DNA of 64,000 nucleotides from Torpedo marmorata (lineage: Eukaryota), in contig OZ360222.1 in assembly GCA_977017645.1 (NCBI GenBank), positions 211,296,001 to 211,360,000 on the forward strand, read 5' to 3'. The position numbers and the translations under genes are program-made. Below the pieces are notes generated by a model. The model was not told the DNA's origin and searched no databases. It saw only the letters and a program-made list of their open reading frames with translations. Shown here piece by piece: positions 15,792-63,129 of this stretch. Within the stretch, counting starts at the first letter, position 1; each line of letters begins with the position of its first letter.

Positions 15792-15804
15792 GTCGGGGTC
15801 ACCA
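15792..15804 (-). promoter_or_regulatory. Primer-binding site for tRNA-Trp
   Basis: TGGTGACCCCGAC is complementary to the tRNA-Trp 3' end GTCGGGGTCACCA. Confidence 0.85.
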
Positions 15805-15805
15805 A

Positions 15806-27569: not shown

Positions 27570-30500
27570 ACTGATGTCCAGTTCGAAGGTGGCCCCGTTG
27601 TTCCGGACGACTCGGAAGGGGCCTTTGTAGGGCTTCTGTAGCGGTGGACGGTGTGGCCCTCTGCGTACGAACACATACTCACAGTCTTGGAGGTCTTTAG
27701 GGATGTTGAAGTTGGCTTGCCCATGTCTGGAGGGTGGGATCGGAGCCAGGTTACCGACCTTTTCCAGCAGCCTGTCCAGGAAGGTGGTTGTATCCTCCTG
27801 TTGACCTCTGGCCGGTGGGACGAAATCCCCGGGTACCATGAGTGGTGCTCCGTAGACGAGCTCGGTGGAGGATGTGTGGAGGTCTTCCTTCGGGGCTGTA
27901 CGAATCCCCAGCAGTGCCCATGGTAGTACCTATCATCTCCTGCCTTTGCCACCCCCTCACTCTTTTGTTCGAACGCCTGCCGGCATTTTCTCATACTTTG
28001 ATGAGGGGCTCAAGCCCAAAACGTCGGTTATGTATTTCTACCTTTGCTACATAAAAGACACTGTTTGACCTGCTGAGTTTCTCCAGCATTTGTGTTTTTT
28101 ACTTCAACCACAGTGTCTACAGATTGTCGTGTTTTACTTGCCCATGGCAGTTCATCAACCCAGTTGGGACCCTTGAGTCTGGTCATAAGGGCGGCCTTGA
28201 GGTGCCTGTGGAAGCGCTCAACCAGCCCGTTAGACTGCGGGTGGTATGCTGTTGTATGGTGTAGCTGAGTGCCCCACAGGTTGGCAACTTCGGACCACAG
28301 ACTGGAGGTAAATTGTGCGCCTCTGTCGGAGGTTATGTGGCGTGGTAGCCCGAACCTTGCTACCCAGGACAAGACGAGTGCCTTGGTGCAGGACCTGGTG
28401 GATGTGTCGGCCAGGGGGATTGCTTCTGGCCACCAGGTGAAAAGGTCGACCACCAGGAACAGGTAGCGGAAACCCTGTGAGACTGGTAAGGGTCCCACTA
28501 TGTCCATGTGAATGTGGTCAAACCTTCGCTCCGTTGGCTCAAAAGGCTGCGAGGGGACCTTGGTGTGCTGCTGTACCTTGGCTATTTGGCACTGTGTGCA
28601 TGTCTTGGCCCACCCGCTGACTTATTTCCGCAATCCATGCCACGCGTACTAGCTGGCCACCAACCGGACCGTGGTCCTGATTGATGGATGTGCCAGCCCG
28701 TGGATGGAGTCGAAAACTCGTCGCCTCCATTCCATTGGGACGATAGGTCGAACCTGCCCGGTGGCCACGTCGCACAGGAGGGTAGTGTTACCTGTGTCGA
28801 CTGGGATGTCCTGAAGCTGCAGCCCAGTGACGGCGGTCCTGTACTGAGGCATCTCGTCGTCCTGCTGCTGTACCTCCGCTAATGCCATGAAATCCAGTCC
28901 GTTAGCCAGAGAGTGGATGCTCTGTCTCGACAAGGCGTCCGCGACCACGTTGTCTTTTCCCGAGATGTGCCTTACATCGGTGGTGTACTCCAAGACGTAA
29001 GACAAGTGTCTCTGCTGGTGGGCTGACCAGGGATCGGAGATCTTGGCCAGGGCAAACGACAGTGGCTTGTGGTCCGTGAAAGCCCTTCCCTCTAGGAAGT
29101 ACCGGAAGTGGCGGATGGCTAAGTACAGCGCCAGTAGCTCTCTGTCGAAAGCACTGTACTTTAGCTCAGGGGGCCGCAGATGTTTGCTGAAGAAAGCTAG
29201 TGGATGCCAATTTACTTCTATCTGCTGCTCCAGAACTCCACCAAACGCCGTTCCTGAGGCATCGACCGTGAGGGCTGTGGGTGCGTCTGACCTGGGGTGG
29301 GCCAGGAGTGCGGCATTAGCCAGGGCTTCTTTCGCTTCCACGAACGCTCATGCGGAGTGAGCGCATGGATCGAGCAGCTGCGGGGATGAATCTGCGATAA
29401 AAGTTGACCATCCCCACAAACTCCTGCAGTCCTTTGTCGTACTGGGCCTCGGGAAGTTGCGGATAGCCTCCACCTTGCTGGGTAGTGGCATGGCCCCGCA
29501 TTTGGTAATCCTGTGGCCCAGGAAGTCAATCGTGCTCAGCCCGAACTGGCATTTAGCCAGGGTGATAGTAAGGCTGAACTCACGTAGGTGACTGTAGAGG
29601 CTTCGGAGGTGTTGTAGATGTTCCTGCTGGGTTCTGCTCGCCACCAGGATATTGTCTAAGTAGACGAAGGTGCCGTCTAGGTCTCGGCCCACCGCGTCCA
29701 TCAGTCGCTGGAAGGTCTGTACCGCGTTCTTGAGCCCAAATGGCATCCTCAGGAACTCGAACAGCCCGAATGGAGTGATGATAGCTGTCTTGGGGATGTC
29801 GTCAGGGTGCACCACGATTTGGTGGTACCCTCGCACCAAGTCCACTTTGGAGAAGATCGTCGCTCCGTGCAGGTTTGCCGTAAAGTCTTGGATATGCGGC
29901 ACGGGGTAACGATCTGGAGTGGTGGCCTCGTTAAGCCAGCGGTAGTCGCCACACGGTCTCCAGTCCCCAGATGCTTTGGGCACAATGTGCAGGGGAGAAG
30001 CCCATGGACTGTCCAACCGCCAAACGATGCCTAACTCCTCGAGCTTGCGGAACTCCTCCTTGGCCAGTTGTAGCTACTCCGGGGGAAGTCGTCTTGCCCT
30101 TGCGTGGAGAGATGGACCCTTGGTAAGGATGTGGTGCCTGACGCCGTGTCGGGGAACCTCCACAATGAACTGAGGGGAAAGGATTGCCGGGAACTTGGCC
30201 AGCGCTTTGGAGAACTCATCGTCCAAGCTGTGGACGGAGACCAGGTGCAGTGTCGGGAGCCCAGCGCCCCTCAGTGCGAAGGTTTGGAACCTTTCCGCGT
30301 GCATGAGTCTCTTGCCCTTGAGGTCCACTAGGAGGCTGTGGGCCCGCAGGAAGTCCGCTCCAAGGAGTGGCTGTTCCACTGCGGCCAGCATGATCTCCCA
30401 CGAGAAGTGACTGCCTCCGAACTGCAGCTCGGCCCTACGCTTGCCATAGGTCTGTATGCTGCTGTTGTTGGCAGCCCTCAACATGGGTCCCGCTTGCCTG

Positions 30501-31726
30501 CATCTAGTGTCCAAACCTGTCGGGGGCAGCACGCTGACCTCCGCTCCTGTATCCACCAAGAATCGTCTACCGGAAAGGCGATCCCATATGTACAGGAGGC
30601 TCTCTCGATGGCCAGCCGCCGTGGCCATCAGTGACAGCTGGCCTTGTCGTTTCCCTGGAACTCGCAGGGCGACTGGCATTGGCGGGCCTCGGAGCCCCAT
30701 CTTTGGCGGTAGAAGCACCATCTCTCCTTGGACTCATCCCTGCTCCTTTCCTGATCCTGCCTTGGTCTGGTTGCGAGACTTCGTGACGAGCCCCACGGTA
30801 GCCGAGCACTTCTGTTTCTGCTTCCACAGAATATCTGCCTGTGCTGCGACTTTTCGGGGGTCGCTGAAATCCGCGTCAGCCAGGAGTAGTTGGACGTCCT
30901 TGGGCAGCTGCTCCAAGAACTCCTGCTCGAACATGACACAGGGCTCGTGGTCTCCCAGGAGGGCTAGCATCTCATTCACGAGCGCTGATGGGGATCTGTC
31001 CCCTAGCCCACCCAGGTGGAGCAGCCGTGCCCCTCTCTCTCACCGCGAGAGCCCGAAGGTCTCAGTCAATAGCTCTTTGAAGGCAGTGTAAGTGCCTTCT
31101 GATGGTGGCCTCTGGACGAAGTTGGCCACCCTGTCTGCAGTTTCTGGATCCAGGGCGCTGACCACATGGTAGTACCATGTGGTCTCAGCAGTGATGCCCC
31201 AAATTTGGAACTGAGCCTCAGCCTGGTCGAACCACACGCCGGGTCGAACTGTCCAGAAGGTCGGGAGCTTGAGGCCGACTGAGCTGATTGCTGCTTCGCT
31301 ATCCATCGCTGTGTTTAGATGCTGTCTAAACCGTCGGGGTCACCAATTGTAGCCGACTGCTATGAAGAAACACACACACGCAGTGTGGAAGGTTAAGGTC
31401 TCTCTTTTATTGAGGCTGGAAATGCTTCTTTTATACAGCTGGAGTTCCCGCCGTTTGGTTGATTGGTTGTCATCAGCCGCATGAATAACAATAGCGGGCA
31501 GGAACGTTCTTGCATATGAATACCCTTCTTCCCCAGCCTGGTATTGATCTGTTAGCTGGGCAGCTTGGCCAGCGCCATTTTAGGGCTCCTGGTCTTGTAC
31601 TGCTCCAGCTTTCAACCGCGCCGTTCGCTATGCTAAGAGTCGCGTTACAGTGTGTTATGCCGCTGTTTACTACCGCACACGCCACGCGATGTGCTGGCTC
31701 GATCTCCGCGGTGGCGGGCCGCCATA
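27570..31726 (-). mobile_element. Ty3/Gypsy LTR retrotransposon with 5' LTR, tRNA-Trp PBS and frameshifted gag-pol; 3' end missing
   Basis: LTR 31348-31726; PBS TGGTGACCCCGAC 31333-31345; gag LKLPTFW, protease DTGA, RT, RNase H, integrase (DIVGPLP, ITSDRGAQF, SNGLVERFH, PYKGPF); breaks off at ~27570. Confidence 0.94.
27928..28138 (+). mobile_element. Penelope-like pseudo-LTR inserted in Gypsy integrase, 13-bp TSD
   Basis: TSD TGCCCATGG(T/C)AGT at 27915-27927 and 28139-28151; hammerhead-like motif 27992-28032. Confidence 0.85.
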
Positions 31727-32140: not shown

Positions 32141-32793
32141 TATAATTACAGTGACTTCGATCCACCAATAGTCACCTGGAGGCTAAGTGTGGTCCTTGTC
32201 TTTGACGCGTTTTAATTAATTTACTAACAAAGTCCAATATGTTCAAAACCTTTATTTACATAAGTGACTTGCAGTAATCTTCAATGACTTTAATATAAAC
32301 AGTTCTTGTAAACGATGTATGATGAGTTCCTTTAAATAATTCTTTAAACAATTCCAAAACGATATGAAACACTGTAGAACGATGTAAAAGTTATAAAACG
32401 ATATAAAACGGTCAATAAAGATGTGGAGACCTCACTCACCCTCCAAACATCTTATTCCTTTCCTTTTCTCTCTCTCTCTCTCTCCTTGATTTGCGCATGC
32501 CCATTAGCTCCTAAACCAATGCGCATCCTACCCCGCGCATACTACATTTCCCAGACCGCAACGCGCACAATGACGTCACTCCACACTGCGCATGCGCCCG
32601 TCGGCACTCCCGCGCATGCGCAGATCAAAGAACGGGCCGACGACGGCCCACAGAACAACGCGAGCGCTCCATGGCCCGACGTGGCCTAGGAGCGCTCCGA
32701 GGACGGCCTACAGAACTACGCGAGCGCTCCAAGGCCCGACGAGACATCGGAGCACCGCAACAACGGTAAGTTAATGAGCCTACGGCTCTTACA
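32141..32793 (-). mobile_element. Solo LTR related to the BEL/Pao LTRs at 44489 and 62426
   Basis: Starts TGTAAGAGCCGTA; shares TAAAGTCATTGAAGATT, CTCCAGGTGACTATT and GAAGTCACT; GAGA on both flanks; no internal sequence. Confidence 0.85.
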
Positions 32794-43982: not shown

Positions 43983-44488
43983 TTTTCTTTTCACCTCATG
44001 CAACATTAATATTTTTAATGTTTTTTATATAGTCGGTAGGAGAGAAGTACGGAAGAAACCAAAACGACTGCTTCAAGGGGAAGGAGGCCCATAAACATTG
44101 AGCAAAGTGCTAAGGGGGCCATAGCCAAAAAAAAAGGTTGAGAATATCTGACATAGAACATAGAACATTACAGCACAGGAACAAGCCCTTCAGATCAACT
44201 ATCTGCATTGACTATGATGCCAAATTAACCTAATCCCTGCACATGGTCTGTATCCCTCTACTTTGTTCATATGCCTAACTCAAGTTTTTCTTCTGTGCAC
44301 TTTGTGACAGATCCCAGATTCTCCTCTGCAAATCTTTCCTCTAGTATTTCATTTTACTTTAAAGCATCCTCAGCCTTTCAAATTAATCTTTCTGAAACTC
44401 TTCTAATATGGATCTTTGCTCCATGAGCAACAATATAAAGATGCCCCATCATATTGATGCCCTTCTGCAGCTTTGCTATTAACATTCC

Positions 44489-45081
44489 TGTAAGAGCCGT
44501 AAACTTAATTACCTACCTTGGCCGCGGCGCTCCGATGGTCTCGGCGGGTTACGGAGGAGTCGCGGTGTTTGGTGGGCCATGCTAGGACTATTTTGTGTTC
44601 TGCGCGTGCGTGGGAGTGCCGATGGGTGCATGCGGAGTTGGGAAGTTACGGTAGTATGGGCGGTGGAGTGTGTGCGGTGGAGTATGCGCGGTGTGGTATG
44701 CGCGGTGGAATGTGTGCGGTGGGCATGCGCGAATTGGGGTAAAAAGAATAGGAAAAGATGGCGACGGAGGAGGGTGAGTGAGATCGCCATATCTTTCATT
44801 CACCTTTTAAACTCGTTTCATTTATGGTTTAAAGTCGTTACATTGAACATTTAAATACAGTCAAAGGAATCGTTTAAAGGAATTCATTAAACATCGTTAT
44901 CAAGAACTGTTTCTATTTTGTTTAAAGAAGATATTTAAGTCATTGAAGATTGCTGCAAGTCACGTGTGTAAATAAAGTTTTTTTAACATATCGGACTTTG
45001 TTAGTAAATTAATTGAAACGCGTCAAAAACAAGTATCTCACCTAGCCTCCAAGTGACTATTGTTGGATTGAAGTCACTATA
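44489..45081 (+). repeat. BEL 5' LTR (593 bp)
   Basis: TGTAAGAGCC...GTCACTATA; direct repeat of 62426-62990 with two extra 14-bp units. Confidence 0.92.
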
Positions 45082-45530
45082 TAATTAGTCAATAAAAGTG
45101 ATTGTTTGGAACAGAAAATTGAAGGAAATAAGATAGAATAATCTCTCTGTGCTTTGGACTGATATTTAAAATAAAATGGTGGCCATCTTGGAGATGCCTC
45201 GAGTTGGGGGCAGTTTGTAATCCACATCCATCTGCCATGAGTAACAGCCAGAGAGGGATTTAAAGCTTCAAATCTTATAGTAAAGTGTTCTATAAATACG
45301 TTGGAAAAAACATTTTTGGAAAATCAGCGATATTATTGACGGATGTTGTGGTTGAAACTCATTTGTGAATAGCAGCACATTACAGTCATCTGAAGTGGTA
45401 GGCATAAGTCTGTGGACTCCTTCTGTGTATCTTTGGCAAGTTAGAACACAGATTGGATTTGCTGCCGCTGGTCCATTGGGGACTGTTGATTTGGCTGGTG
45501 TTGTGTATGCTTGAAGGACAGTGGAACAAG

Positions 45531-47901
45531 ATGAGTAAAATGGCCGCAGCAGCCTCTGATACAGCAGCCACTGATATATCAGCAGCTGACGCAGCAACCG
45601 CTGATGTTGCTGTTAAGGACCAACGTATTGAAGACATGAAGGTTGCGGATATTAAAAAAAAATTGAAGAGACTGAAACAAGATATAAGTGAAAATAAAAA
45701 GGTTCTCATCGCAAGATTGAAGCTGGCAAAGGAAGAAGAAGCAGCTTTGTTAGATGAACAAGAAGATAACGTGCAAATGGCTGAAATTGTGTCACCAAAT
45801 GAAGAGGATGAAGAAAATGAAGAGGATGAAGAAAATGAAGAGTGTGAAGAAAATGAAGAGGTTGAAGAGGATGAAGAAAAAGAAGAGGATGAAGATGCAA
45901 AGGATGTACAATTCGAATTGGAGATGGAGGTAAGTATGAAGACAACATATGACCTGCAGGACGAAATACAAGCAAGTGACAGTGTCTCAAATGCTGAAAG
46001 CAGGAGAAGCAAACAAAGTTCTGGTTTGAGCTCCAGAGTTTCTCGTACTTCAAGTTCTACATTGTCACGTACGAAGATTGATGTTAACTTGGCCGCTCTT
46101 CTTGCACAACAAAAAACACTTAAGGATAAACATATTTTAGAACAAAAGGAGGAGCAGCTAAGACAAAAGGAGGAGCAGCTAAAGGAGCAGATAAGACAAA
46201 ATGAGGAGCAGCTGAAGGAGCAGATAAGGCAAGAGAAGGAGCAGCTAAGACAGAGAAAAGAAGAGCAGGAGCTGGAAGCAAACATTACTATTGCAAAAGC
46301 AAAAAAGAAAGCAATAGAAGGCTCAATGGTATCTGGTGCTAGAAGTAAATTATCTAAAGTGTCTGATAATAAAAGGTCATATTTAAAAAAAGAGTCGCAG
46401 GAAAAGAAACCAACCAAAAGGGTAGATATTTTAGAACCAGAGGTACAAGAATTGCAAATACAAGGACAAATCCTTCAAGAGCATATTGGTATCGAGTCAC
46501 ATGTACCAGTGGTAACATCTGAAGACAAAGCTGCCGCTTGGATTTGGTTGGACGATGCAGCTCCCTTGTTATTTGAGTCAAGCATCAAAAATATGGAAAA
46601 AACTACACCAATGAGGTTTCCAGATACATTACCTGTAACAAGAGGCGGTGAACAGAACAATGTATTGTCATCAAAAGGAAGACAAAATGAAATTGCTGCA
46701 TCATTGATTTAGTTACAGTCTCTCTCTTCTTTACCCAAGAAAGAGATACAAACTTTTGATGGTGATCCACTTCAGTACCAATCATTTATGAGATCTTTCA
46801 AACGCAATATTGAAAATAAATGCCAAGATCGTGATGAATGTCTTTATTATTTGGAAATGTTCATAAAGGGACATCCAAAAGAACTTGTAAAGAGTTGTCA
46901 ACATATGTCTTCAGAAAGAGGATTAGACAGAGCAAAGGCTTTACTAGAACAACATTTTGGCAACATGCATCGAATTGCTTTAGCTTATATGGATAAAGAT
47001 CTTAAATGGACATCAATAAAACAAAATGATGTAAAGGCTCTACAAGAATATACTCTATATTTAAGAGGATGTTGTAATGCCATGGAAGATATCGATAATA
47101 TTCGTGAGCTTGAAGTGCCTGGTAATATGCGAATCATCTTAGAAAGATTACCTTACAAGTTGTGGGATAGATTGAGAAATTTGGCTTGTGGTACACAAGA
47201 AAATTATAGTCGAAGAGCTACCTTAAAGGATTTTGTAAATTTTCTTGAACGACAGGTGTACATTGAAACAGATCCAATATATGGAAATATTAGAGACAAT
47301 TCAATAGGGAACAAAGATGTAAGGAGGTCTAACTCACAGCCTAGTCTGAAATTGAAAAGGAGTACTTTTGCTACTAATGTGTCAGTTATAAATAAAGAAA
47401 AGGACAAAGTAAATAAGGAAAAGGAAAGTTGCCTGATGAAAAGAGTTGTTTGTTCTGTAAAGGTGGACATGCTTTGGAAATGTGTTTACAGTTGGAAAAG
47501 AAGGAACATAATGAGAAGATCGCTTTCTTAAAGGAAAATGGAATATGTTTTAGCTGTCTGTGTAAAGGGCACGTCAGTAAAAACTGCGAGAAGCGAATTA
47601 ATTGTAACATATGTAAGTTGAAACATCCTAGAATTTTGCATATCCAACAAAGAAACAAGGAATTGGAAAAGGAGCAAACAGAAACAAAGGAAAGAACAGA
47701 AAACAATGTTATAATCTCGGTTCAGACAAGTGGTCTTACTGGGGCCGGTGTGAATAATTGCAGACTTTCAATAGTGCCTGTACGTCAAGACCAAGAAAGG
47801 GGATGCAACAGTACATACATATGCATTTCTCGACCCAGGCAGTACTGCATCTTTTTGCACGGAAGGACTAATGAACAAACTTAATATTCAAGGAAGAAGA
47901 T
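45531..47901 (+). pseudogene. BEL/Pao Gag and protease N-terminus (SAP-like motif, acidic tract, coiled coil, DUF1759-type capsid region, three zinc knuckles)
   Basis: LPKKEIQTFDGDPLQY; CLFCKGGHALEMC, CFSCLCKGHVSKNC, CNICKLKHPRILH; TYAFLDPGSTASF; one in-frame TAG at 46710 and frameshifts near 47440 and 47780. Confidence 0.9.
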
Positions 47902-49238
47902 TAGTGTGAGCTGCCTCAACGACTACCGGCCAGTAGCACTAACTTCTACTGTGATGAAATGCTTTGAGAGGCTGGTCATGGCCAGAATTAACACATACCT
48001 AAGCAAAGATCTGGACCCACTGCAATTCGCCTATCGCCACAATCGCTCCACAGCAGATGCAATACCGCTGGCTCTCCACTCAGCTCTGGACCACCTCGAA
48101 AACAGCAATTCATACATACGGTTGCTCTTCATCGACTACAGCTCGACCTTCAATACCATTATTCCCTCAGTGCTGGTCAAGAAGCTACAAACTCTAGGCC
48201 TCTGTACCCCCCTCTGCAACTGGATCCTTGACTTTCTCATCGGAAGACCTCAGTCAGTACGAATTGGAAACAACGTCTCCTCCTCACTGATTATCAACAC
48301 AGGTGCACCCCAAGGATGCGTGCTTAGTCCACTGCTCTACTCGTTATACACTCATGACTGTGTGGCCAGGCACAATTCCAATGCCATACACAAGTTTGCC
48401 GATGACACCACAGTTGTCAGCAGAATCACAAACGGCAATGAGGAAGCGTACAGGAGGGAGATAGATTAGCTCGTTGAATGGTGTAATGGCAACAACCTTG
48501 AGATCAACATCAGCAAAACCAAGGAGATGATTATGGACTTCAGGAGGAAGTCAGGGGAACACGACCCAGTCCTCATCGAGGGCTCAGCAGTGGAGAGGGT
48601 CAAGAACTTCAAATTCCTGGGTGTCAACATCTCCGAGGATCTGTCCTGGAGCATCCACGTAGATGCAATCACAAAGAACGCTCGTCAGCGGCTATACTTT
48701 ATGAGGTGTTTGCGGAGATTCGGTATGTCACCAAAGACTCTCGTAAACTTCTACAGGTGTACCGTGGAGAGCATTCTGGCTGGTTGCATCACTGCCTGGT
48801 ATGGAGGCGCCAACTCCCAGGACAAGAGTATACTCCAGAAGGTTGTTAACTCGGCCTGTGACATCACAGGCACCAAACTTCACTCCATCGAGGACATCTA
48901 CATGAGGCGGTGTCTTAAAAAAGCAGCCTCTATCCTCAAGGACCCCCACCACCCAGGTCATGCCCTCTTCACTCTGCTTCCATCGGGAAAAAGGTACAGG
49001 AGCCTAAAGACGAGCACTCAACGGCACAAGGACAGCTTCTTCCCCGCTGCCATCAGATCCTGAATAATCAATGAACCAAAGACACTGCCTTACTTTTCGT
49101 GCACTATTGTTTATAATTTTTTATAGTAATGTCATTAGATGGTTAATATGAATGTTAATTGCACTATGATGCTGCTGCAAAACACCGAATTTCATGACTT
49201 GTTCATGACAATAAATTCTGATTCTGATTCTGATTCTG
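47902..49238 (+). mobile_element. Rex1/Babar LINE subfamily A, 5'-truncated, in BEL protease
   Basis: RT motifs, stop at ~48467, (ATTCTG)n tail; BEL resumes IILKTMGQ. Confidence 0.94.
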
Positions 49239-49414
49239 AATTATATTGAAAACTATGGGACAAGAAAAGGTCGTTGAAACCAGCATTGTTAAAGGCTTAG
49301 AGGTTGCTGGATTGGATGACAAAAAATTTTGTGATCTTCCAATGTTATATACTCAGAAGACTATGCCTATGCATGAAGGAAACATTCCTCATCAAAATGA
49401 TGTACATCATTTAT
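49239..49414 (+). pseudogene. BEL protease segment between two Rex1 insertions
   Basis: LKTMGQEKVVETSIVKGLEVAGLDDKKFCDLPMLYTQKTMP is collinear BEL protease-region sequence. Confidence 0.8.
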
Positions 49415-51618
49415 CTCGACCACTGCTACATCACCGTGAAGAACGCATACCGAGCCATACCACGACTGCACTTCGGCAAGTCTGATCACCTGGCTGTACT
49501 TCTACTCCTGGCGTACAAGCAGAGACTGAAGACCACAGCACCAGTGGTGAGGACGGCGAAAGTATGGTCGAGGGGGGCAGAGGAGCGTCTGCAGGACTGC
49601 TATGAATCGGTGGATTGGAACATATTCAAGCAATCAGCCATAGACCTAAATGAATATGCAACAGGTGTCACTGACTTCATCAAGACCTGCGTGGATGAGT
49701 GTGTGCCCACGCGCAAACACAGGGTGTTCCCCAACCAGAAGCCCTGGATGAATCAGAGAATTCGCAACCTGCTGAGGATGAGAACAAGGGCGTTTAAGGC
49801 CAGGAACCGGGATCTTTACAAGAAGTCCAGGCACGACCTGCGGAAGGCCATCTCTGAAGCAAAGTGGCAATTCCGGAGGAAGCTAGAGACAGAGACAGAT
49901 ACACGCCAGCTATGGCAGGGAGTGCAGGCCATTACAGCCTACAAAGCGAGGGTGAACACTATAGATGGCGATGATGCTTCACTAACCGATGAGCTGAACA
50001 CCTTCTATGCCCGCTTTGAGAAGGAGAACAAAACAGTGCCTACTAGAATCCCTGAAAAAGGCTGAGGACCCTGTGATATCTGTCTCTGAGGGCGACGTCA
50101 GAACATCATTCAAGAGGGTGAACCCTCGCAAGGCGTCAGGCCCTAACGGCGTACCTGGCAGGGTACTGAAAATCTGCGCAACCAACTAGCTGGAGTGTTC
50201 ACGGACGTTCTCAACCTCTCATTGCGGAAGTTAGAGGTTCCCACCTGATTCAAAAGGGCATCAATCATCCCGGTACCCAAGATGAGTAGTGTGGGCTGCC
50301 TCAACGACTACCGCCCAGTAGCACTCACTTCTACTGTGATGAAATGCTTTAAGAGGCTGGTCATGGCCAGAATTAACACATACCTAAGCAAAGTTCTAGA
50401 CCCACAGCAATTCGCCTATCGCCACAATCGCTCCACAGCAGATGCAATACCGCTGGCTCTCCACTCAGTTCTGGACCACCTTGAAAACAGCAATTCATAC
50501 ATACGGTTGCTCTTCATCGACTACAGATCGGCCTTCAATACCATTATTCCCTCAGTGCTGGTCAAGAAGCTACAAACTCTAGGCCTCTGTACCCCACTCT
50601 ACAACTGGATCCTTGACTTTCTCATCGGAAGACCACAGTCAGTACGAATTGGAAACAACGTCTCCTCCTCACTGATTATCAACACAGGCGCACCTCAAGG
50701 ATGCGTGCTTAGTCCACTGCTCTACTCGTTATACACTCATGACAGTGTGGCCAGGCACAATTCCAATGCCATATACAAGTTTGCCGATGACACCATATTT
50801 GTTGGCAGAATCACAAACGGCAATGAGGAAGCGTACAGGAGGGAGATAGATCAGCTCGTTGAATGGTGTAATGGCAATAACCTTGAGCTCAACATCAGCA
50901 AAACCAAGGAGATGATTATGGACTTCAGGAGGAAGTCAGGGGAACACGACCCAGTCCTCATCGAGGGCTCAGTAGTGGAGAGGATTAAGAACTTCAAATT
51001 CCTGGGTGTCAACATCTCTGAGGATCTGTCCTGGAGCATCCACGTGGATGCAATCACAAAGAACGCTCGTCAGCGGCTATACTTTGTGAGGTGTTTGCGG
51101 AGATTCGGTATGTCACCAAAGACTCTCGTAAACTTCTACAGGTGTACCGTGGAGAGCATTCTGGCTGATTGCATCACTGCCTGGTATGGAGGCGCCAACT
51201 CCCAGGACAAGAGTAAACTCCAGAAGGTTGTTAACTCGGCCTGTGACATCACAGGCACCAAACTTCACTCCATCGAGGACATCTACATGAGGCGGTGTCT
51301 TAAAAAAGCAGCCTCTATCCTCAAGGACCCCCATCACTCAGGCCATGCCCTCTTCACTCTGCTTCCATCGGGAAAAAGGTACAGGAGCCTAAAGACGAGC
51401 ACTCAACGGCACAAGGACAGCTTCTTCCCCGCTGCCATCAGATCCTGAATAATCAATGAACCAAAGACACTGCCTTACTTTTCGTGCACTATTGTTTATA
51501 ATTTTTTATAGTAATGTAATTAGATGGTTAATATGAATGTTAATTGCACTATGATGCTGCCGCAAAACACCGAATTTCATGACTTGTTCATGACAATAAA
51601 TTCTGATTCTGATTCTGA
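49415..51618 (+). mobile_element. Rex1/Babar LINE subfamily A, 5'-truncated within the endonuclease
   Basis: HFGKSDH, KPWMN, RT ORF 50282-51448, (ATTCTG)n tail; TTATCT on both flanks (49411-49416, 51621-51626). Confidence 0.94.
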
Positions 51619-51621
51619 TCT

Positions 51622-52278
51622 TATCTGTGGAATGTTTATTTACCTGAAATTAACTCTGAGATAGAAATGCTGATTGGTTCAGATGTGCCAAAGGTTTTGG
51701 AACCACTAGAATTAATACAGAGTAGAAGGAATGGACCTTACGCTATTAGAACCAGGCTTGGTTGGACAATCAATGGATCATTGGAAAAAAATAATGATAT
51801 TGCTCAGGAACAGTTAGCGATAAATATTGACAGGATTTCGGTTGTGAAAGTTGATGAATTAAGGGAAGAGCAAAAGACTGTGAATAAGAAAATCACTTTT
51901 GAAGAAAAGATAACAGATCAATGTGAAAATAAATCAAAGGTATTTAAAACAACATTGAAAGAGTTATTTTCATCAGAAATGAATGAAAATGAAGTATTAG
52001 ATATTGCAAATAATACTATTGATTATTCATGTGTAATTGAATCAGATACAGGAATAAAACAAGTGACTGAGAACAAATCTGAATGTAGATTTTGTAGTTC
52101 AGAGGTTACATCAGACAAAGTTAATGAAGAAATATTGCAATGTGATGTAAAACTGGAGAACACAAGAAATTGTGCTGATGGAATAAAGAAGAATGTGAAT
52201 GATAATTTAATGCAATTGAATTCAGAGAACAAAATGTTGAAAAGGGAAAAGGAATTGGAAATATTAGATAATCATGAA
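51622..52278 (+). pseudogene. BEL protease C-terminal region fused in frame to non-BEL coiled-coil sequence
   Basis: [34 protein letters not shown] is BEL-typical; after ~51870 the frame stays open but has no RT motifs. Confidence 0.8.
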
Positions 52279-53716
52279 CGTCCCGGACGCCGCCATTCAG
52301 CTGGATGGGCTCGCTTTATTTAGGGCTGACAGAGATGCTGCTCTCTGTGGAAAAGTCCGTGGCGGTGGCTTGTGTGTTTACATCCACAGCGTTGGTGGAA
52401 TTTGTGACTGTCAGATGTAGACCATTTTATCTACCACGGGAATTTACCACGGTCCTTACAGTTGGAGTGTACATCCCCCACAGCGCTAATGCCAAGGAGG
52501 CGATCTGGGAACTGTGTAGGGCTATAAGCGAACTGCAGACCGCACACCCTGATGGACTGCTGATTATCACTGGCGACTTCAACCAGGCGAACCTCAAGAC
52601 AGGGCTACCAAAATTCCATCAGTATGTGGACTTTGCTACGAGAGGGGCGAACGCGTTGGATCTTGTGTTCACGAACATTTCCGGCGCGTATCGGTCAGAG
52701 CCCCGCCCCCACCTCGGATACTCAGACCATATCTCAGTAATGCTAACCCCAGCATACAGACCGTTCGCCAGACGCTCCAGACCAGTTTGGAAGCAGGTTA
52801 AAACCTGGCCAGCAGGTGCCATCCATGCACTTCAGGACTGCTTTGAGCGTACTGATTGGCACATGTTCAGGGAAGCAGCAACCGATGGTGACTGCATCAA
52901 TCTGGAGGAGTATACGGCATCGGTGACTAGCTACATTAGTAAGTGTACTGACGAAGTCAATGTGCCCAAGAACATCATTACTCACTCTAATCAGAAGCCA
53001 TGGATGACTGCGGAGGTGCGTGTGCTGCTGAGGAGCCGAAACTCTGCCTTCAGTGCGGGCGACAAGGTAAGCCTAGCTATCGCAAGAGCCAAGCTGTCTA
53101 AGGCCATCAGGGAGGCAAAGCGTGCACATGCCCAGCGAATTCAGAGTCACTTTCAGGACAGCAAGGACACGCGACGCATGTGGAAGGGCATTCAAGATAT
53201 CGCTAACCACAAGACTACACCATCTGACTGTGCTGGTGATGCCTCCCTCCCAGATGCACAGAACAACTTCTACGTGCATTTTGAGGCAAAAAAATGATGT
53301 AGTGGCAAAGAAGACAACCCCTCCTCCAAATGATCAGGTGCTGTGTTTCACAGTGGCTGATGTGAGGAGAATGTTAAGCAAGGTTAACCCACAGAAAGCT
53401 GCTGGGCCAGATAACATTCCCGGCAGAGTGCTCAAGGGATGTGCGGCCCAGCTGACTGATGTTCTCATCGACATCTTTTTAAAAAAAATATTTTATTTAA
53501 AATTTTTAAATCACACAATACACAGTTTAAAACGCAAATTTCTCAAATTACATGTGATACATTTTCACCCCCCCCTCCCTCCCTCCCTCCCTCCCCTCCC
53601 TAACCCTCCCGAAAAGAAAGAAAGAAGAAGAATAGGATAAAGTAAGGAGAATGTCAATCTAAAAAGAACAACTATAAACTGATCTTATTGTGGAGGATAG
53701 GCTCGCCAGCCAGATC

Positions 53717-56700
53717 CGATGTCCAGAGATCTTCAAATCCTTAAACCCACAATTTTTATATATATGGGCTCCATACTTCCAAAAAGAAATAATACTTATC
53801 ACGTAAATTATATGTAATTTTTTCGAGTGGTATGCATGAACGCAATTCTGCGTGCCATCTTTCCAAACCCAAATCTACATCCGACTTCCATGTTGTGGCA
53901 ATACATTTCTTAGAAACGGCTAAAGCAATACGTAAAAACTCTGTCTGGTACATATTTAATTTCACTTTAACACTGGTTCCTTCAATATCTCCAAACAAAA
54001 ATATCATAGGATCCATTGGAAGTGTAGTTCCTAATACTTTATCTAAAAAATTTTTAACTTTCAACCAAAAATCATAAACTTTTGGACAAAACCATGTAGA
54101 ATGTACAAAAGAACCTTCCTCTTTATTACATCTAAAGCATAAACCAGATAATGTCGGATTAAATTTCTTTAATTTTTTAGGTGTTAAATATAGTTGATGA
54201 AAAAAATTATATTGCACCAATCTATATCTAACATTAATAATCTTCGTCATACTTTGTTTACATAATTTTTTCCAGTGTTCTTCATCTATTGTTACATTCA
54301 AATCTTTTTCCCAATTTAATCTTGATTTATGAATTCCTGTTTTAGGAAGTTTCCTCTGTAGCAATCTGTACATTTGAGAAATAAATTTAGGCACACCTCC
54401 ATTAGTAACTAATAATTCCAATTCAGTCTGTCTTGGTAAGGTCAAACCGCGGCCCAACCTTTCCCCTAAAAACGCCCTAATTTGATAATAAGCAAAGATT
54501 GTATTATTTGCTACACGAAATGTATCTTTCATTCTCTGAAACGTAATAAATTTACCAGCTTCAAAACAGTCATTTATTTCCTTAATTCCCTTTTGGTACC
54601 AAATTTTAAATAGTTGATTATCGACAGTAAATGGAATAAGATCATTTTGATATAGAGGCATTCTTCGAGAAATTGATCCTTTCGCTCCTATTTCTCTATC
54701 CACTCTATTCCATATTTCTAACAAGTGCCTAAAAATAGGAGAATTTTTCCCTCTTGTTAATAATAGTTTAGAATGAATTTAAATATGTATCAAATTGAGT
54801 TTTTGAGAATTGCTTTAGCGGTTGCTAAGAAATGTATCGCTATCACTTGGAAATCTGATGTAGATTTAGGTTTAGAAAGGTGGCACGCAGAACTTCGTTC
54901 TTGTATACCACTTGAAAAAATTACTTATAATTTATGTAACAAATATCATTTCTTTTCGAAAATATGGAGCCCATATATAAAATTGGTCGGCTTAAAAATA
55001 ACAATTTGAAGATCTCTGAACATTGGATCAGGCTGGTAACCTAATTTCCACTAAAATTTTAGTTTATAGTTATTTTTTAGTCTAGATTGACATTCTCCTT
55101 AGTTTTTCTTTTCTTTTCTTTACTTTATTTTATTTTATTTTATAGATTAGTAGGGGTGGGAGGGTTAGGGAGGGGTGGGGGGGTTAGGGTGGGGAGGGTG
55201 GTTGGGAGGGAGAAAATATATCACATGTATTTTGATAATTTTGCGATTTATATAATGTATTTTGTGATTTAAAATTTTAAATAAAATATTCAAAAAAAAA
55301 AAAAAAAGAATTAATAATAGTTTAGAATTCCATTTATAAATGACTTCTTCTTTCAAATCCTCTCCTATATTATTTAATTCTATTCTCATCCAAGCAGAGA
55401 GCTTCCCTCAATCAAACAATTCGTTAATAAATTTTAGTTTGGCTGCTTTATAATAATATTGAAAATTAGGAAGCTTTAGACCGCCCATTTCGTAGTTCCA
55501 GGTTAATTTCTCCAATCCTACTCTCGCCAACTTTCCTTTCCACAAAAATGTCCTAATAATTAAATTTAAATCCTTAAAAAACTTCTGAAGGATTTCATAA
55601 GGAATTGATTGAAAAAGATACTGAATTCTCGGAAAAACGTTCATTTTAATACAATTTACCCTTCCCACTAAAGTTATAGGCAAATCCTTCCATCTCTCCA
55701 AATCCTTTTTTATATTCACAAATAATGGTAAATAATTTAATTTATACAAATTGGATAATTTTGTATCAATCTTTATTCCCAAATATTTAATTCCTCCCTT
55801 TGCCCATTTAAATTGTGTAATTTCTTTACAATCGCTATAGTCCCCTTGTGTTAAAGGCATAATTTCACTTTTATCCAAGTTAATCTTGTAACCAGATATT
55901 CCCCAAAATTCTTTCAATAAAACAGACAATTGTGTTAGAGAATTAATAGGTTTTGTCATATATATCAATTCGTCATCTGCAAACAAACTAATTTTGTGTT
56001 CTTCCTTACCAACTTTAATACCTGCAATCTTACTATCTTGTCTAATTAATTCGGCTAAAGGTTCTATTGCTAAAATAAACAATGCTGGCGATAAAGGACA
56101 ACCTTGTCTAGTAGACCTGGTTAAGGAAAATTTTGAAGATATTTGACCATTTGTGACCACTCTAGCAGATGGTTCTTTATATATAGTTTTAATCCAATTA
56201 ATAAATGTATTTCCAAAACCAAATTTTCCCAGTACCTTAAATAAATAATTCCACTCTAATCTATCAAAAGCCTTTTCGGCATCTAATGTTAATACGAATG
56301 ACAGTTCTTCTCTTTTTTGTGCCACGTTTATTAGACTAATTAATCTAGCGATATTATCTTTTGAATATCTGTTTCTAATAAAGCCTGCCTGATCTCCATG
56401 GACTAAGTCTGGTAAGAACTTAGCCACTCTGTTTGCTAAAATTTTCGCCATTATTTTATAATCCACATTTAACAACGATATTGGTCTATATGATTCTGTT
56501 CTCAACAAGTCTCTATCTTTTTTCGGTATAACTGTTATTAATGCATTGGTGAAGGATTCCGGTAGAGAATGGGTTTCCGTTATTTGTTTTAACACCTCCA
56601 TATAAGGAGGAATCAATATGTCCTTAAATTGCTTATAAAACTCTGATGGGAAACCATCCTCCCCCGGAGATTTCCCACTTGTCAAAGAACTAAGAACCCC

Positions 56701-58077
56701 ATCGACTTCCCTCATCGTAAATGGTGAATCTAAAGATTCTTTACTAAGTGTATCTAACCTGGGCATCTTAATTTTGGATAAAAATTTGTTAATTTTAGAA
56801 TCATCTTTATCGGCTTGAGATGTATATAAATTCAAATAAAAATCTTTGAAAGAATCATTTATTTCTCGCGGTTTATAAGTTATTTTCTTAGAATTCTTTT
56901 TTATAGCCGTTATAGTTCTAGAGGTTTGTTCCTTCTTTAATTGCCAGGCTAAAACTTTATGAGCTCTTTCTCCCAGTTCATAATACCTTTGCTTAGTCCT
57001 TTCAATGAGTTTTTCCAATTTATATGTTTGTAACGTATTATAATATAACTTTTTCCCAATTAAATCTTTCTTCTTTTCTTCTGATCTCTTTTTTTGTAGA
57101 TCCTTCTCCAAAAATTCAATCTCCTTCTCCAAATTATCCAATTCCTGAATATTTTCCTTCTTAACTTTTGCTGAGTAACTTATTATCTGACCTCTTAAAT
57201 AGGCTTTCAAAGCATCCCAAATAATAAATTTGTTTTCCACGGAATCCGTGTTAATCTGTAAAAATTCTTGGATTTCTCTTCTTATATATTTACAAAAATC
57301 CACTCTCTTTAGTAAAGAAGAGTTAAACCTCCATTTATATATAATTTTTTCTTTTTCTGGAATTATGCACGACATTAATAAAGGCGAGTGGTCAGAAATT
57401 AATCTAGCCTTATATTGTACTTGAGTCACCCTATCCTGTAATTGTGATGACAGCAAAAACATGTCTATTCTAGAATAAGAATCATGTCTAGAGGAATAAA
57501 AGGAGTAATCTTTTTCTCTCGGATTCAACTTCCTCCAAATATCAATTAGATTCAGGTCTTCCATCATCGTTAGAATTCTCTTAGCAGTTTTAGTTCTAAT
57601 AATTGATTTGGATGTTTTATCCATTACTGGGTCCAGACAACAATTAAAATCTCCACCAATTAAAATATTATCGTATGCCTCTGACAGATGCATAAAGGAA
57701 TCTTGAATAAATTGATCATCTTGCGTATTCGGCACATATATATTCATAAGAGTCCACATTTCTGAGTATAACTGACAGTTTATTAAGACGTATCTTCCTG
57801 ACCCATCAGTAACCACTGAATGTATTTTAAGGGGTAGCTTCTTATTAATTAGAATAGCGACCCCTTTAGCCTTGGAATTAAATGAAGACGCCACCACTTG
57901 ACCAACCCAATCTCTTTTCAACTTCTGATGTTCTAAATCAGTCAGATGCGTCTCCTGTAATAAAGCTATGTCTACATTCAATTTTTTGATGTGCGCTAAA
58001 GTTTTCTTCCTTTTAATAGGGTTATTGAGCCCATTTATATTAATACTAACTACATTTATTAATTTACAGTCCACCAT
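53717..58077 (-). pseudogene. L1 ORF2 (APE endonuclease, RT, Cys-rich C-terminus), interrupted
   Basis: NINGLN, LQETH, GDFN, SRID, SDH, QGCPLSP, FADD in the 889-aa ORF; C-terminal part 53756-54724; end coordinate approximate. Confidence 0.93.
54775..55310 (+). mobile_element. Short 5'-truncated L1 inserted antisense into the full-length L1, 18-bp TSD
   Basis: TSD TTAATAATAGTTTAGAAT at 54757-54774 and 55311-55328; poly(A) 55292-55307. Confidence 0.93.
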
Positions 58078-58463
58078 TGCTGATGTACAATAACTTTCTC
58101 TCCCTCGGATCCGCTGGCTCCCCCCCCCCCCTCATCTGTAAACTATTTGACATCTCCTTAGAAGAAAAAAGAGAAAAGGATATAAAAAGAGAATAGAGAA
58201 CTAGAGAACCCCCTATATATAATACTGGTAAATTCACACCAGTACTACCCCCCTCCATTGCTCGGGAAGTGGCCCTCGCCACTAAAATGATGCGCGACTA
58301 GGTCGAGGAAGACCAGAAGTCCACCTCCCCCATACAGATTCCGAACAAATTATGTTATCGTCTCTTCGTCAAACAACTCCAAGATTCCTATTAACTTAAT
58401 CTTCATCAGTTACTACCCCATTGACATGTTCCAAAACTCTTGACGAGAGCAATTTTAAGCCAA

Positions 58464-59823
58464 TCAGATGATTTGGTGACGCTCCGTAAAACCTTGACCT
58501 TTCTTTGAGTCCGGAAGCATATTTGCATGATGTAAAGCTTCTTGGGGATCAGTAAAGAACATTGATTGGTTCTCTGCAGACTGAACTCTCAATGTCGCAG
58601 GATACCTAAAAGAAAATTTATAACCTTTTCCCCACAAAACCGCTTTTGCCGGATTAAATTCCTTCCGTTTCTTTATGATTACCGAACTCAAATCCGCGTA
58701 GAAAAATACCCTGCTCTTATCGATTCTCAACGGGCCCTGCTGAATTCTTGCCTTTTGAATAGCCAATTTCAATATTTTTTCCTTATCCTGATATCTTAGG
58801 CATCTAATTAGAATTGAGCGTGGCCTTTGATCAGGATACGGTTTCCTCCTGCTATCCCTGTGGGCTCTGTCCAGTTCAAGTCCATTCAGAAAGTGATCCT
58901 TTCCTAAGGTCTGCGGGATCCAGTCTTGAAAAAAAGTAGTTGGATTGGTTCCTTCAAAATCCTCGGGTAGTCCCACAATTTTAATATTATTTCTTCGGCT
59001 TTGATTTTCTAATACATCTAATTTTTGTAAAAGTTTGTTCTTTTGCAGCTCCCAACCCGTGAACGAATCTTCCACTTTGTCCACTCTGTCTTTGTAGTCC
59101 ACCAAATCTTCGTCGTGTTCCTCAACCTTTTCTTCAATTTTCTTAACCCTCCATGATACTTTATCCACAATGATAGAATGCTTCTTCATATCCTCTTTAA
59201 CAGCTTTTATTTCTTCCCTAATTGCTTTAAATCCATGTTGCATACGTTGATTCAGTGATGCAACTTCTTTTGTTAATCTGTCCATTGCTTCTATAAGTGA
59301 CTTTGCTAACTCTTGCCCACCTAAAAGCATTGGAGCCTCCTCTTCATCACTTTCTTCTTCCTCCCCCTCTCCCTCCATCTCTTGTAATCCTCCTTCCCAT
59401 TCATGTTCTTCTTATTCCTCTCTTCTTCTTTCCCCTGGATCTGCCGACGTTAATATATCCTGCTCAGCTTCACAGCTGAGCGTTAACGTTTATCTGTCAC
59501 TGTCAGCTGTGGCTGACAGTTCTCGAGCGATTTTGCGCATGCGCGTCGTTTCGCGCATGCGCGGCGGGTCCGCCGGAAGTTGTACGACCGGAAGTTGTAG
59601 TTCTTTACAACTCCGGGCCCCAGCGCCATTTTCCACAGTTCCCCGGGAGGACGGCGTTGGTGCTCCAGGTACCTTCGCCGTCTTCTTCTGTGTCTTCCGC
59701 GGGGGGAGAGGAGCTTGTTCCCGAGGCTCCAACACCAAGGTAGGCCGATTATTTTCCTGACCTAAACTTTCCCTAAACACTGATTTCTTTAATTTCCCTT
59801 CCTTCATTCTCTTACTGGACATC
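58464..59823 (-). pseudogene. L1 ORF1 (coiled coil, RRM, CTD)
   Basis: ENQSRRNNIKIVGLPE, LDRAHR, FRYPATL; upstream ORF 59490-59843 is in the same frame, separated by two TAA stops. Confidence 0.9.
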
Positions 59824-61324
59824 CCTGAACCTTTCTTCCACACTTTAACTTTATCTTAGTAACTCTAACTTTCTTTTAGTCTATTTTTAATTAAATCCGA
59901 TGGGAGAGGTGTAATAACCCGTCTCCACCTCACGTCATCACGTGACACCCCCCCCTCATCGACATCTTTAACATTTCCCTGAGCAGTGCCGTGGTTCAAA
60001 TGTGCTTCAAAGCTGCTACCATCATCCCCGTGCTGAAGAAGTTGACGGTGTCCTGCCTCAATGACTACCGCCCTGTCGCACTCACATCTACCGTCATGAA
60101 GTGCTTCGAGAGGCTCGTCATTAGGCACATCAAGCTTCTGCTGCCCACCTCACTGGACCCCCTGCAGTTCGCATATAGATCAAACCGCTCCACAGATGAT
60201 GCCATCATTACCACCCTCCACCTAGCACTCACCCACCTGGAAAATAAGGACGCGTATGTTCGAATGCTGTTTATTGACTTCAGCTCGGCATTCAACACGA
60301 TAGGGAAGTTGACGGGGCTGGGCCTAAACTATACCCTCTGTAATTGGATTCTAGACTTCCTGACGGGGAGACCTCAGGCAGTCCGGATTGGAAACAGCAC
60401 TTCCAAGGTCATTACATTGAGCACGGGGGCTCCCCAGGGCTGTGTGCTTAGTCCATTGCTGTTCACCCTGCTGACTCATGACTGTGCAGCAAAACACAGC
60501 TCGAATCACATCATAAAGTTTGCTGATAATACAACCGTCGTGGGCCTTATGAGTAAGAATGATGAGTCAGCATATAGAGATGAGGTGCAGTCGGTAATGG
60601 AATGGTGCGGAAACAACAACCTGCAGCTGAACAAAAGAGTTGGTTGTTGACTTCAGAAGGGCCCGGGGGGATCATTCTCCTTTGACCATGGACGGCTCTA
60701 CCGTTGAGGTCGTAAAGAGTATCAAGTTTCTTGGAGTGCACTTGGCGGAGAGTCTCAGCTGGTCCCTCAACACCAGTTCCATAGTCAAGAAAGCCCAGCA
60801 GCGTATTTACTTCCTGTGAAGACTGAGGAAAGTTCATGTCCCACCCCCTATCCTTACTACATTCTACAGGGGATGTATTGAGAGTATTCTGAGCAATTGC
60901 ATCACCGCTTGGTTTGGAAACTGTACCACCTCGGACCGAAAGACCCTGCAGAGGATAGTGAGGGCAGTGGAGAAAATTATTGGAGTCTCTCTCCCCACCA
61001 TGACAGACATTTACAAATGAGGAAGGCTAAAAACATTATGAAAGACTTCTCACACCCCTTTGGTAAACTGTTTTCCCCTTTGCCATCTGGAAGGAGGTAC
61101 CGAAGCACTCGGGCTCGTTCGTCCAGACTGTGCAACAGTTTTTTTCCCCCAAGCCATCAGGCTCCTCAATTTCTAGATATATATGCGTATTAGCATGTTA
61201 TAGTTTTTCTATTGTATTATGATATTTATGTACATCTGCTGATGGTCCTGGAGAAACACTATCTCGTCTTACTGTGTATATGGTAATGAATGACAAATAA
61301 AGGTGACTTGACTTGACTTGACTT

Positions 61325-61891
61325 GAAAACAATAAACAGAAAGATTTAATTGTAAGTAAAATTCGCAAAGTCAGAAAGCGGAAGAAAAGAATAACTGCTG
61401 AAGAAATGAATACAGTTATTGAGGAAAGAGATTCAGCATTATCAAAATGTAAAAGGTTGGAGGAAGAGATTAATATTTTGAAAGAGAACAAGTTATTGGT
61501 TAATAACACAAAACAGTTGACTATAGAAAACAATCAAGAATGTAAATTGAATGTTCAGCTACTAACAATGCAGAAAGAAAGTGATATTGCATTGCAGAAA
61601 TGTAACAAGCAAGATGAAGAAATAAAAAAATTTCAAGTTTACCTCAGTAGGGTTGACAATAGAAATATCAATGTATCACATGATATTTTCACTTCAGATC
61701 AAGTTATTAATTTCTCGGAAAGAACTGAGACTGAATTGAAAGTCGCAAAATTGGATTTGGAATTGCAGGAAAAGGCAATAGATACCAGAGTGGTTAAAGA
61801 GACTCATTTATTAAAATTGAGAGGATCAGATAAATATTCAAATTCTAGTTCTAAGAGTTTAAATTCTTCACATGAGAAGTGGAATACTTAA
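61325..61891 (+). pseudogene. MIPOL1: Coiled-coil coding segment inside the BEL element with a MIPOL1-like region (captured fragment, not the host locus)
   Basis: RITAEEMNTVIEERDSALSKCKRLEEE...NN..LT.ENNQE..L...LL.MQ...EEI....VY versus human MIPOL1 recalled as RITAEEMSALIEERDAALSKCKRLEQE...NNMRHLTAENNQERALKAKLLSMQ...EEIQTLRVY. Confidence 0.8.
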
Positions 61892-62035
61892 GAAAGATAT
61901 AAAGTGAAACGACATGCTGAAGAAGTGCCTCGTGTTAAATTCAAAAGAAAAGCTGTATCTATTTTGTCTGAGGAAGATTTGAGGTTTACTGGTCGACGTC
62001 TTAACTCAAAGATTCTGGAGATAAAAAAACTTTGA

Positions 62036-62218
62036 GGAGACTTTGTAATTATTATGGATATTTCAACTCCAAGAAACTCCTGGTTACTTGGAAAAATTAT
62101 TGAGACTATTCAGGACAAAACGGGACTTGTGCGTCAAGTTCGAATTAAAACTAAGACTGGCTTTCTAAATAGTCCTATTGACAAGGTCTGCCTTCTGTTG
62201 AAGACGGAGGAACTTTGA
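62036..62218 (+). pseudogene. BEL integrase C-terminal domain (DUF5641 type)
   Basis: GDFVIIMDISTPRNSWLLGKIIETIQDKTGLVRQVRIKTKTGFLNSPIDKVCLLL; not in the ORF track, translated by hand. Confidence 0.88.
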
Positions 62219-62425
62219 TAAATACAAACTGACTTTATTTGTTGTTGTATACTTCACAGGTTACAGACTTTTGTTGATTCAGAGTTATGGTAAACTCTGG
62301 TCTTATGAAGAAAGAAGAAAGAAGATTTGTATATTATTTAAATGTTATATGGTTATTGTTATTTATAATTGATTGTGTAATTATTATTTAAGACATTGTG
62401 TCTAATTATAATAATTAGGGGCCGG

Positions 62426-62990
62426 TGTAAGAGCCGTAAACTTAATTACTTACCTTGGCCGCGGCGCTCCGATGGTCTCGGCGGGTTACGGAGGAGTCGC
62501 GGTGTTTGGTGGGCCGTGCTAGGCCTATTTTGTGCTCTGCGCATGCGTGGGAGTGCCGACGGGCACATGCGCAGTTGGGAAGTTACGGTAGTATATGCGG
62601 TGGAGTGTGCGCGGTGGAATCTGCGCAGTGGGCATGCGCGAATCGGTGTAGAAAGAATAGGAAAAGATGGCGATGGAGGAGGGTGAGTGAGATCGCCATA
62701 TCTTTCATTGACCATTTAAACTCGTTTCATTTATGGTTTAAAGTCGTTACATTGAACATTTAAATACAGTCAAAGGAATCGTTTAAAGGAATTCATTAAA
62801 CATCGTTATCAAGAACTGTTTCTATTTTGTTTAAAGAAGATATTTAAGTCATTGAAGATTGCTGCAAGTCACGTGTGTAAATAAAGTTTTTTTAACATAT
62901 CGGACTTTGTTAGTAAATTAATTGAAACGCGTCAAAAACAAGTATCTCACCTAGCGTCCAAGTGACTATTGTTGGATTGAAGTCATTATA
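62426..62990 (+). repeat. BEL 3' LTR (565 bp)
   Basis: TGTAAGAGCC...GTCATTATA followed by the TSD. Confidence 0.92.
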
Positions 62991-63129
62991 ATTCCTTCCC
63001 TGTTTATCTCCAGAATATTTTCTTGTCATTCGTACCTCCCCACCATTTTAACCTACCTTCAGAGGTCATTATTCAACATTCACCATTTTGGTTAAATGCT
63101 TTATTTTTTTTAAATAAAGCTGTCTCTAC

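Follow-up and report, generated by a model that had tools for sequence, protein, structure and literature searches.

The window analysed here, a 64,000-nucleotide stretch of Torpedo marmorata DNA, carries a non-autonomous BEL/Pao retrotransposon in which the reverse transcriptase (RT)-RNase H-integrase core is swapped for intron-less pieces of three host genes, BRCA1, MIPOL1 and Elongin A. The element lies on the plus strand at 44489-62990 and is bounded by a pair of LTRs (44489-45081 and 62426-62990) that are identical at 543 of 565 ungapped positions (96%) and end in TGT...ATA as opposed to TG...CA. The 5-bp target-site duplication ATTCC stands on either side (44484-44488 and 62991-62995), the 5' LTR begins with TGTAAG, the type found in the subfamily termed II below, and a purine-rich tract (62415-62425) lies directly 5' of the 3' LTR. 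A Pfam profile search identified DUF1759 (PF03564, just above the cut-off) in gag, which has Cys-His knuckles and is followed by the start of protease (45408-47901), and DUF5641 (PF18701, E 4.6e-11) in the integrase C-terminal tail (62035-62221). Like the paired LTRs and short target-site duplication, a DUF1759 gag and DUF5641 tail are typical of BEL/Pao elements and place the window element in this group, so the first-pass annotation was right to describe a BEL element with LTRs around its MIPOL1 segment. RT, RNase H and the integrase core were absent from the window element and its copies, yet the core is present in a relative, L124 (Peptidase_A17, RVT_1, integrase and DUF5641), identifying the window element as a non-autonomous derivative.

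The window copy is dead. Its gag is broken by stops and a frameshift, and LINE-type insertions interrupt it at three places. An insertion from outside the family, missing from uninterrupted copies and repeated elsewhere in the window, occupies 47894-49237 and is followed by a protease piece (49238-49416), a second insertion (49415-51611) and the end of the protease region up to the switch to BRCA1 (51612-51872). Upstream of these, 45870-47901 is 90% identical to L124 and L127, two copies with a full pol and no host pieces. The captured BRCA1 (51869-52273) comprises parts of two spliced host exons, with four in fuller copies. It is separated from the remaining cassette by about 9 kb of nested LINE-type insertions (52279-61322, no strand assigned); position 52278 adjoins 61324 in eight of the nine other copies compared (L002-L005 and L007-L010), and in L006 too. 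Next come the 3' part of MIPOL1 exon Ed (61342-61447; 91% to host exon L056:2683-2513), exon Ee (61448-61552; 84% to L059:3599-3492) and exon Ef (61553-61647; 86% to L067:5806-5712), which ends at the host donor site. At 61647/61648, a back-splice-type junction joins the Ef donor to the proximal tandem acceptor of the upstream exon Ea, and exons Ea and Eb follow, joined via an 81-nt in-frame deletion (61648-61792). Captured Elongin A (61792-62013) consists of parts of two host exons, with five spliced together in fuller copies, and contains a stop at 61889-61891; the integrase tail lies behind a stop that ends the cassette frame. The BRCA1 and Elongin A pieces had been missed in the first-pass annotation.

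Elsewhere in the window, minus-strand pieces at 32144-32793 are 83-88% like the LTR of this family and are probably a solo LTR of a relative. Two further retroelements occupy the minus strand at 9464-16184 and 27551-31091, which from their ORFs we take to be Gypsy-like, besides many LINE-type copies.

Host origin of the captured pieces

The claim of MIPOL1 homology was based on two peptides, both contained in a 189-aa open frame at 61322-61891. A homologue search of proteins of 332-2000 aa gave 189 matches at E<=0.001 among 1471 candidates for this frame. Among the 120 matches listed, all share the same two precomputed Pfam families and all informative names are MIPOL1; the best match, P0001 of Narcine bancroftii (70% identity, E 1.1e-41), leaves the homology firmly established. 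Neither the MIPOL1 piece nor the long fusion frames matched any Pfam family, so their names rest on homologue matches. The first piece corresponds to P0001 aa 448-553 (61331-61648) and the second to aa 295-376 with a 27-aa gap (61649-61813); the second piece, previously placed at about 61748, is thus present and starts about 100 nt earlier, directly abutting the first. A generic coiled coil was ruled out by the match at E 1e-41 and by exon-level nucleotide matches, and an exon of the real MIPOL1 locus was ruled out by the location of the host gene on contig C40, with introns.

Copies that have diverged less (L013-L041, out of 68 candidates scored) reveal additional cargo. The stretch 5' of MIPOL1 is BRCA1, since all ten of its protein matches carry BRCT domains (402 candidates, best E 8e-72) and nine are named BRCA1, and the stretch 3' of MIPOL1 is Elongin A (PF06881; best homologue E 8e-71). 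The donor genes reside on three other contigs, with MIPOL1 at C40:64.32-64.64 Mb, BRCA1 at C61:25.487-25.505 Mb and ELOA at C41:38.99-39.02 Mb, and their exons are flanked by GT/AG introns and are 83-100% identical to Narcine proteins. Fuller copies match four BRCA1, six MIPOL1 and five Elongin A host exons at 90-100%, joined at splice sites with zero intron bases, indicating that the cargo is spliced RNA in sense orientation. Even the window copy crosses two forward MIPOL1 junctions and one BRCA1 junction without an intron, the outcome that the first-pass annotation had set as support for mRNA capture. Its proposal that a BEL element captured spliced host RNA therefore stands, with MIPOL1 as the middle of three captured genes and not the only one. 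As in LTR-mediated retrocopies, intron-less host sequence replaces internal ORFs between discontinuous element arms.

Most of the joins between element and host sequence carry short shared words: CAAAA at BEL-BRCA1 and AAGAA at MIPOL1-integrase in the copy L131, CAGGACA at the Elongin A-integrase return in subfamily I, and CAGCA at the BEL-BRCA1 join of subfamily II. The apparent microsimilarity amounts to 5-7 nt at four joins and 2 nt at BRCA1-MIPOL1, with an LTR-derived linker at MIPOL1-Elongin A. This linker (17-19 nt) is the start of the family's own LTR, from its first base, and nested integration followed by deletion could equally account for it. Neither poly(A) nor a duplication was found at the element-host joins.

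Several observations concern the donor genes themselves. At its 5' end the large BRCA1 exon of the host (L080, C61:25488548) lacks 9 nt that are represented in the element copies and also in the Narcine bancroftii protein, so the elements preserve the older state. In a public Narcine BRCA1 model (P0121), the N-terminus (aa 1-184) matches repeats flanking the BEL copy L127 (1053-1313 and 9285-9611), and is probably a retroelement exon drawn into the gene model. Introns of the host MIPOL1 gene (320 kb) contain four subfamily II copies (L056, L057, L065 and L076; G000:C40:64.34-64.50 Mb), more than expected from 6,442 copies genome-wide, which may mean that the family is larger than counted; the 100 kb retrieved around BRCA1 and ELOA contained none.

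The non-colinear MIPOL1 junction

In host MIPOL1 the exon order is Ea, Eb, Ec, Ec2, Ed, Ee, Ef, with each exon present once and the next exon following normally after Ef, and the element order is Ed-Ee-Ef-Ea-Eb. To the base, the end of Ef (AG/gtaagc) is joined to the start of Ea (aatag/CAG), using the first, proximal, of two tandem acceptors of an exon that lies about 206 kb upstream of Ef in the host. The same junction was found in 21 of 29 subfamily I loci and 7 of 10 subfamily II loci, namely those with an alignment starting at aa 295, and transcripts of the elements would share it. A non-colinear junction at splice sites is a hallmark of circRNA-derived pseudogenes. The seven exons total 780 nt, a multiple of three, so that the Ef-Ea join alone preserves the frame.

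L131 bears on the origin of this arrangement. It consists of a BEL RT piece, BRCA1, Ed from nt 48, Ee, Ef, Ea, Eb, Ec, part of Ec2 (25-28 nt), the integrase tail and an LTR, and has no Elongin A. Minus small private deletions, it covers about 724 of the 780 nt, or about 93% of one turn, with no repeat. A genome search with the part of Ec that other copies lack returned two candidates, the host gene and L131. For the exon before the putative circle, the one match among 150 scored candidates was the host gene, and for the exon after it the single candidate was again the host gene, with no element copy in either case; the captured exons are therefore only those within the putative circle, as in circRNA-derived pseudogenes. 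The near-full turn in L131 and the restriction of the flanking exons to the host are as predicted by copying of a circle. Across 320 kb of the host locus on C40 the MIPOL1 exons are single and colinear, and a host tandem duplication was not seen in this part of the present assembly. The pieces are out of host order, as the first-pass annotation had noticed; in place of the shuffling of linear mRNA that it suggested, the reversed order is very likely the back-splice of a circular RNA that would have served as template.

Copy number, subfamilies and reading frame

A 21-mer across the back-splice junction had 3185+3257 = 6,442 exact matches in the 6.2 Gb of genome counted and its reversed control had 0, answering the earlier suggestion that genomic copies be counted. 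We took copy number from this exact count and not from the 2070 candidates of the first search. The 21-mer is present exactly in 7 of 10, 16 of 29 and 1 of 4 known copies, and because it misses part of them the true number is likely above 10,000. Nearly all of the first 100 matches listed have subfamily II bases. The cassette's 30 bins were all covered by four contig sets from sequencing runs (three organism labels), with no piece spanning the whole stretch.

The two subfamilies differ in cargo and in the identity of their LTR pairs. Subfamily I, with 136 genomic matches to its linker pattern at one mismatch, has LTR pairs that are 87-91% identical and arms 74-81% identical to pol-bearing copies. 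Subfamily II, to which the window copy belongs, has a shorter cassette and a different LTR start, and its LTR pairs are mostly 94-96% identical (one at 89.5%). It lacks the part of Elongin A recognised by Pfam, of which positions 1-55 are retained in L040 despite an internal deletion, and has drifted to 72-91% nucleotide identity with host exons. Its 5' arms are 86-90% identical to L124 and L127, suggesting arm exchange with a younger helper lineage. Two copies, L020 and L028, have subfamily I-like cargo with an LTR starting TGTAAG and may bridge the subfamilies.

Other copies and relatives showed further features. A PF18701 search (150 of 23,994 candidates scored) revealed at least two BEL lineages in G000, with several copies containing open frames of about 2,000 aa. 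At G000:C42:9563886-9564965 the permuted MIPOL1 piece forms a tandem repeat (period 405 bp) within an open frame of 459 aa, and one copy has a 378-aa frame 3' of the MIPOL1 piece (L015:2111-3244, element orientation), which we presume to resemble a pogo/Tigger-type transposase.

Of nine subfamily II copies chosen by DNA identity, the window copy not counted, seven have all pieces in one frame; subfamily I loci were chosen by protein score and are thus biased to open frames. In L003/L090 the frame extends for 695-747 aa from gag through Elongin A. The frame survives as many as eight shared deletions or new joins, comprising three intra-exon events (-24, -3 and -3), four between pieces and the new BEL-BRCA1 join; of the 78 indels confined to one copy, only 18 have a length divisible by three. 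If each shared event had a one-third chance of being in frame, the probability that all are is 1.5e-4, although microhomology-guided deletions in coding sequence, occurring between short repeats, may favour in-frame lengths without selection. Per pair, BRCA1 and MIPOL1 had 0.00 shared stops and Elongin A had 0.64, compared with 5-7 expected over the cassette from private rates; counting the Elongin A tally as one stop weakens this test to P ~0.01-0.03 by hand arithmetic. A shared stop closes the cassette frame just 5' of the integrase tail.

The amino acids behaved differently from the frame. Pairs of subfamily II copies had about 87 nonsynonymous and 30 synonymous changes in common, for a pN/pS of 0.77, uncorrected for transition bias, which is close to the values for private changes (0.88 and 0.71) and gives no sign of protein constraint. 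By gene, pN/pS ranged from 0.55 to 0.89 in the cassette, and a small gag-protease control (3-4 copies) gave lower values, mostly 0.27-0.54 apart from a single 1.23 that rests on about 8 changes. The frame thus appears to have been kept and the protein not. On the strength of these sequence comparisons, we consider selection on the open frame probable. The likeliest reason, to which we give about an even chance, is that translation through the cassette would protect the RNA or aid its packaging, as may be expected from nonsense-mediated decay and cis-preference: a premature stop ahead of an extended untranslated stretch could make the RNA unstable or cost it cis-preferred packaging. Use of a host protein function is a less likely reason. 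The analogy to retroviral oncogene transduction drawn in the first-pass annotation fits as to mechanism, and a retained host function of the captured protein finds no support here.

Proposed history and comparison with known systems

We consider it likely that this non-autonomous family was built through stepwise RNA capture, and the order of steps proposed here is likewise a likely one. RT in a BEL particle would have switched among co-packaged RNAs, and the greater part of pol would have given way to spliced BRCA1 mRNA and almost a complete turn of a back-spliced, seven-exon MIPOL1 circRNA, a stage of which L131 would be a surviving copy. Spliced Elongin A would then have been added behind MIPOL1 via the 17-19 nt linker from the LTR start, giving subfamily I with a few hundred copies. 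Subfamily II would subsequently have arisen by deletions and by swapping both arms with those of a younger BEL lineage that bears pol, and would have reached thousands of copies using the RT and integrase of a helper, its cassette held open in frame with gag-protease while the amino acids drifted. Mobilisation by a helper is the step about which we are most confident.

Two alternatives bear on the templates. The non-colinear MIPOL1 junction might have come from a linear molecule, through trans-splicing or exon repetition, an ancestral tandem duplication, or an RT jump between linear mRNAs at a shared AG; both exon ends do finish in AG, a shared word of 2 nt, and non-colinear junctions can arise by other routes, as noted by Dong et al. 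(PMC4897178). This origin is nevertheless very unlikely given a join exactly on the donor and a tandem acceptor, a copy in L131 that stops short of repeating after most of one turn, the lack of circle-flanking exons in any copy found, and the absence of duplicated exons across the 320 kb of host locus sampled. It is only slightly less improbable that the pieces arrived via DNA intermediates, as LINE-made processed pseudogenes or nested insertions joined later by deletion. A linker starting at the exact first base of the LTR is what integration would leave, but no free-standing MIPOL1, BRCA1 or Elongin A retrocopy was found, uncaptured neighbouring parts match the host only or the host and L131, and the joins have shared words in place of poly(A) or duplications. 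Template switching onto a circular MIPOL1 RNA and two spliced mRNAs remains the preferred reading.

A different question is whether the cassette aided the spread of the family. Elongin A has a region that binds Elongin BC; this region or the MIPOL1 coiled coil, for example, could have supplied peptide decoys, or the host-like sequence could have blunted small-RNA silencing. In favour of such a role, the cassette persisted over at least three generations and survived the swapping of both arms, its frame was preserved, the Pfam Elongin_A positions in L040 outlived an internal deletion, and a silencing conflict has been proposed for maize gene capture (10.1101/777037). However, the largest burst, that of subfamily II, occurred in copies that had lost the Pfam Elongin_A part and drifted from the host exons with the by-gene pN/pS given above, making an active role unlikely. 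Equally unlikely is the fullest version of this scenario, in which a circRNA and two mRNAs were made into a translated Gag-protease-BRCA1-MIPOL1-Elongin A fusion whose cargo, as protein decoy or small-RNA cover, drove one of this genome's large element bursts and cross-regulates BRCA1. Under the passive reading that we favour, the frame would have been kept open while the protein drifted.

Comparison with published systems indicated that each ingredient has precedent. Among the LTR-mediated retrocopies of animals in Tan et al. 2016 (PMC5131818) are a mosquito BEL18_AG case and a mouse four-gene locus. In these retrocopies too, sense-oriented pieces of host mRNA, in some cases from several genes, stand in for the internal ORFs of an LTR element with discontinuous arms; their switch points show microsimilarity, to which the shared words seen here may correspond. 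They are single loci or few copies, in contrast to at least 6,442 here, and the family described here adds a back-spliced piece, surviving intermediates and a frame kept through many deletions; the word "circular" is missing from the main text of that paper. Maize Bs1, as described there, is also a non-autonomous LTR element with three unlinked genes that was re-amplified with switch points in common, but it is a copia-like plant element with 1-5 copies and one of three pieces out of frame, and a circular template goes unmentioned in that description. The mouse circRFWD2-derived pseudogenes (Dong et al. 2016, PMC4897178) share a non-colinear exon junction, the lack of poly(A) and an LTR association. 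They number 33 high-confidence copies, with about 200 times as many here, and their mechanism of formation was left open by those authors, whereas the present family has a defined BEL element, mapped switch points and an in-frame fusion with two genes and gag-protease. Crocodilian ERV4 elements with KIT-ligand or nectin3 (PMC4299795) are vertebrate LTR elements that replicate a captured host ORF. They are retroviral, with one gene each, 6-9 copies and purifying selection on the host protein, in contrast to the three fragments that the BEL element carries here with no clear constraint at the protein level.

Literature searches, with Repbase, Dfam, subscription journals and supplements outside their scope, turned up no account of this family; the first-pass annotation likewise knew of no described BEL-MIPOL1 chimera. 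The combination and scale are absent from the literature found, and what appears to be new is a capture of three genes, one of them probably as a circRNA, in a family of at least 6,442 copies that has kept its frame and of which an intermediate survives. The family provides a mapped, stepwise record of an LTR element packaging and copying host RNAs, including an apparent back-spliced circle, and for circRNA retrotransposition it brings switch points, intermediate and helper lineage together in one genome. It also means that a vertebrate contains thousands of partial look-alikes of BRCA1, MIPOL1 and Elongin A, making it testable whether silencing directed at the elements extends to the donor genes, and for what reason the frame of a passenger is kept open. 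Finally, the element copies will interfere with gene annotation, with read mapping and with circRNA calling in the electric-ray lineage.
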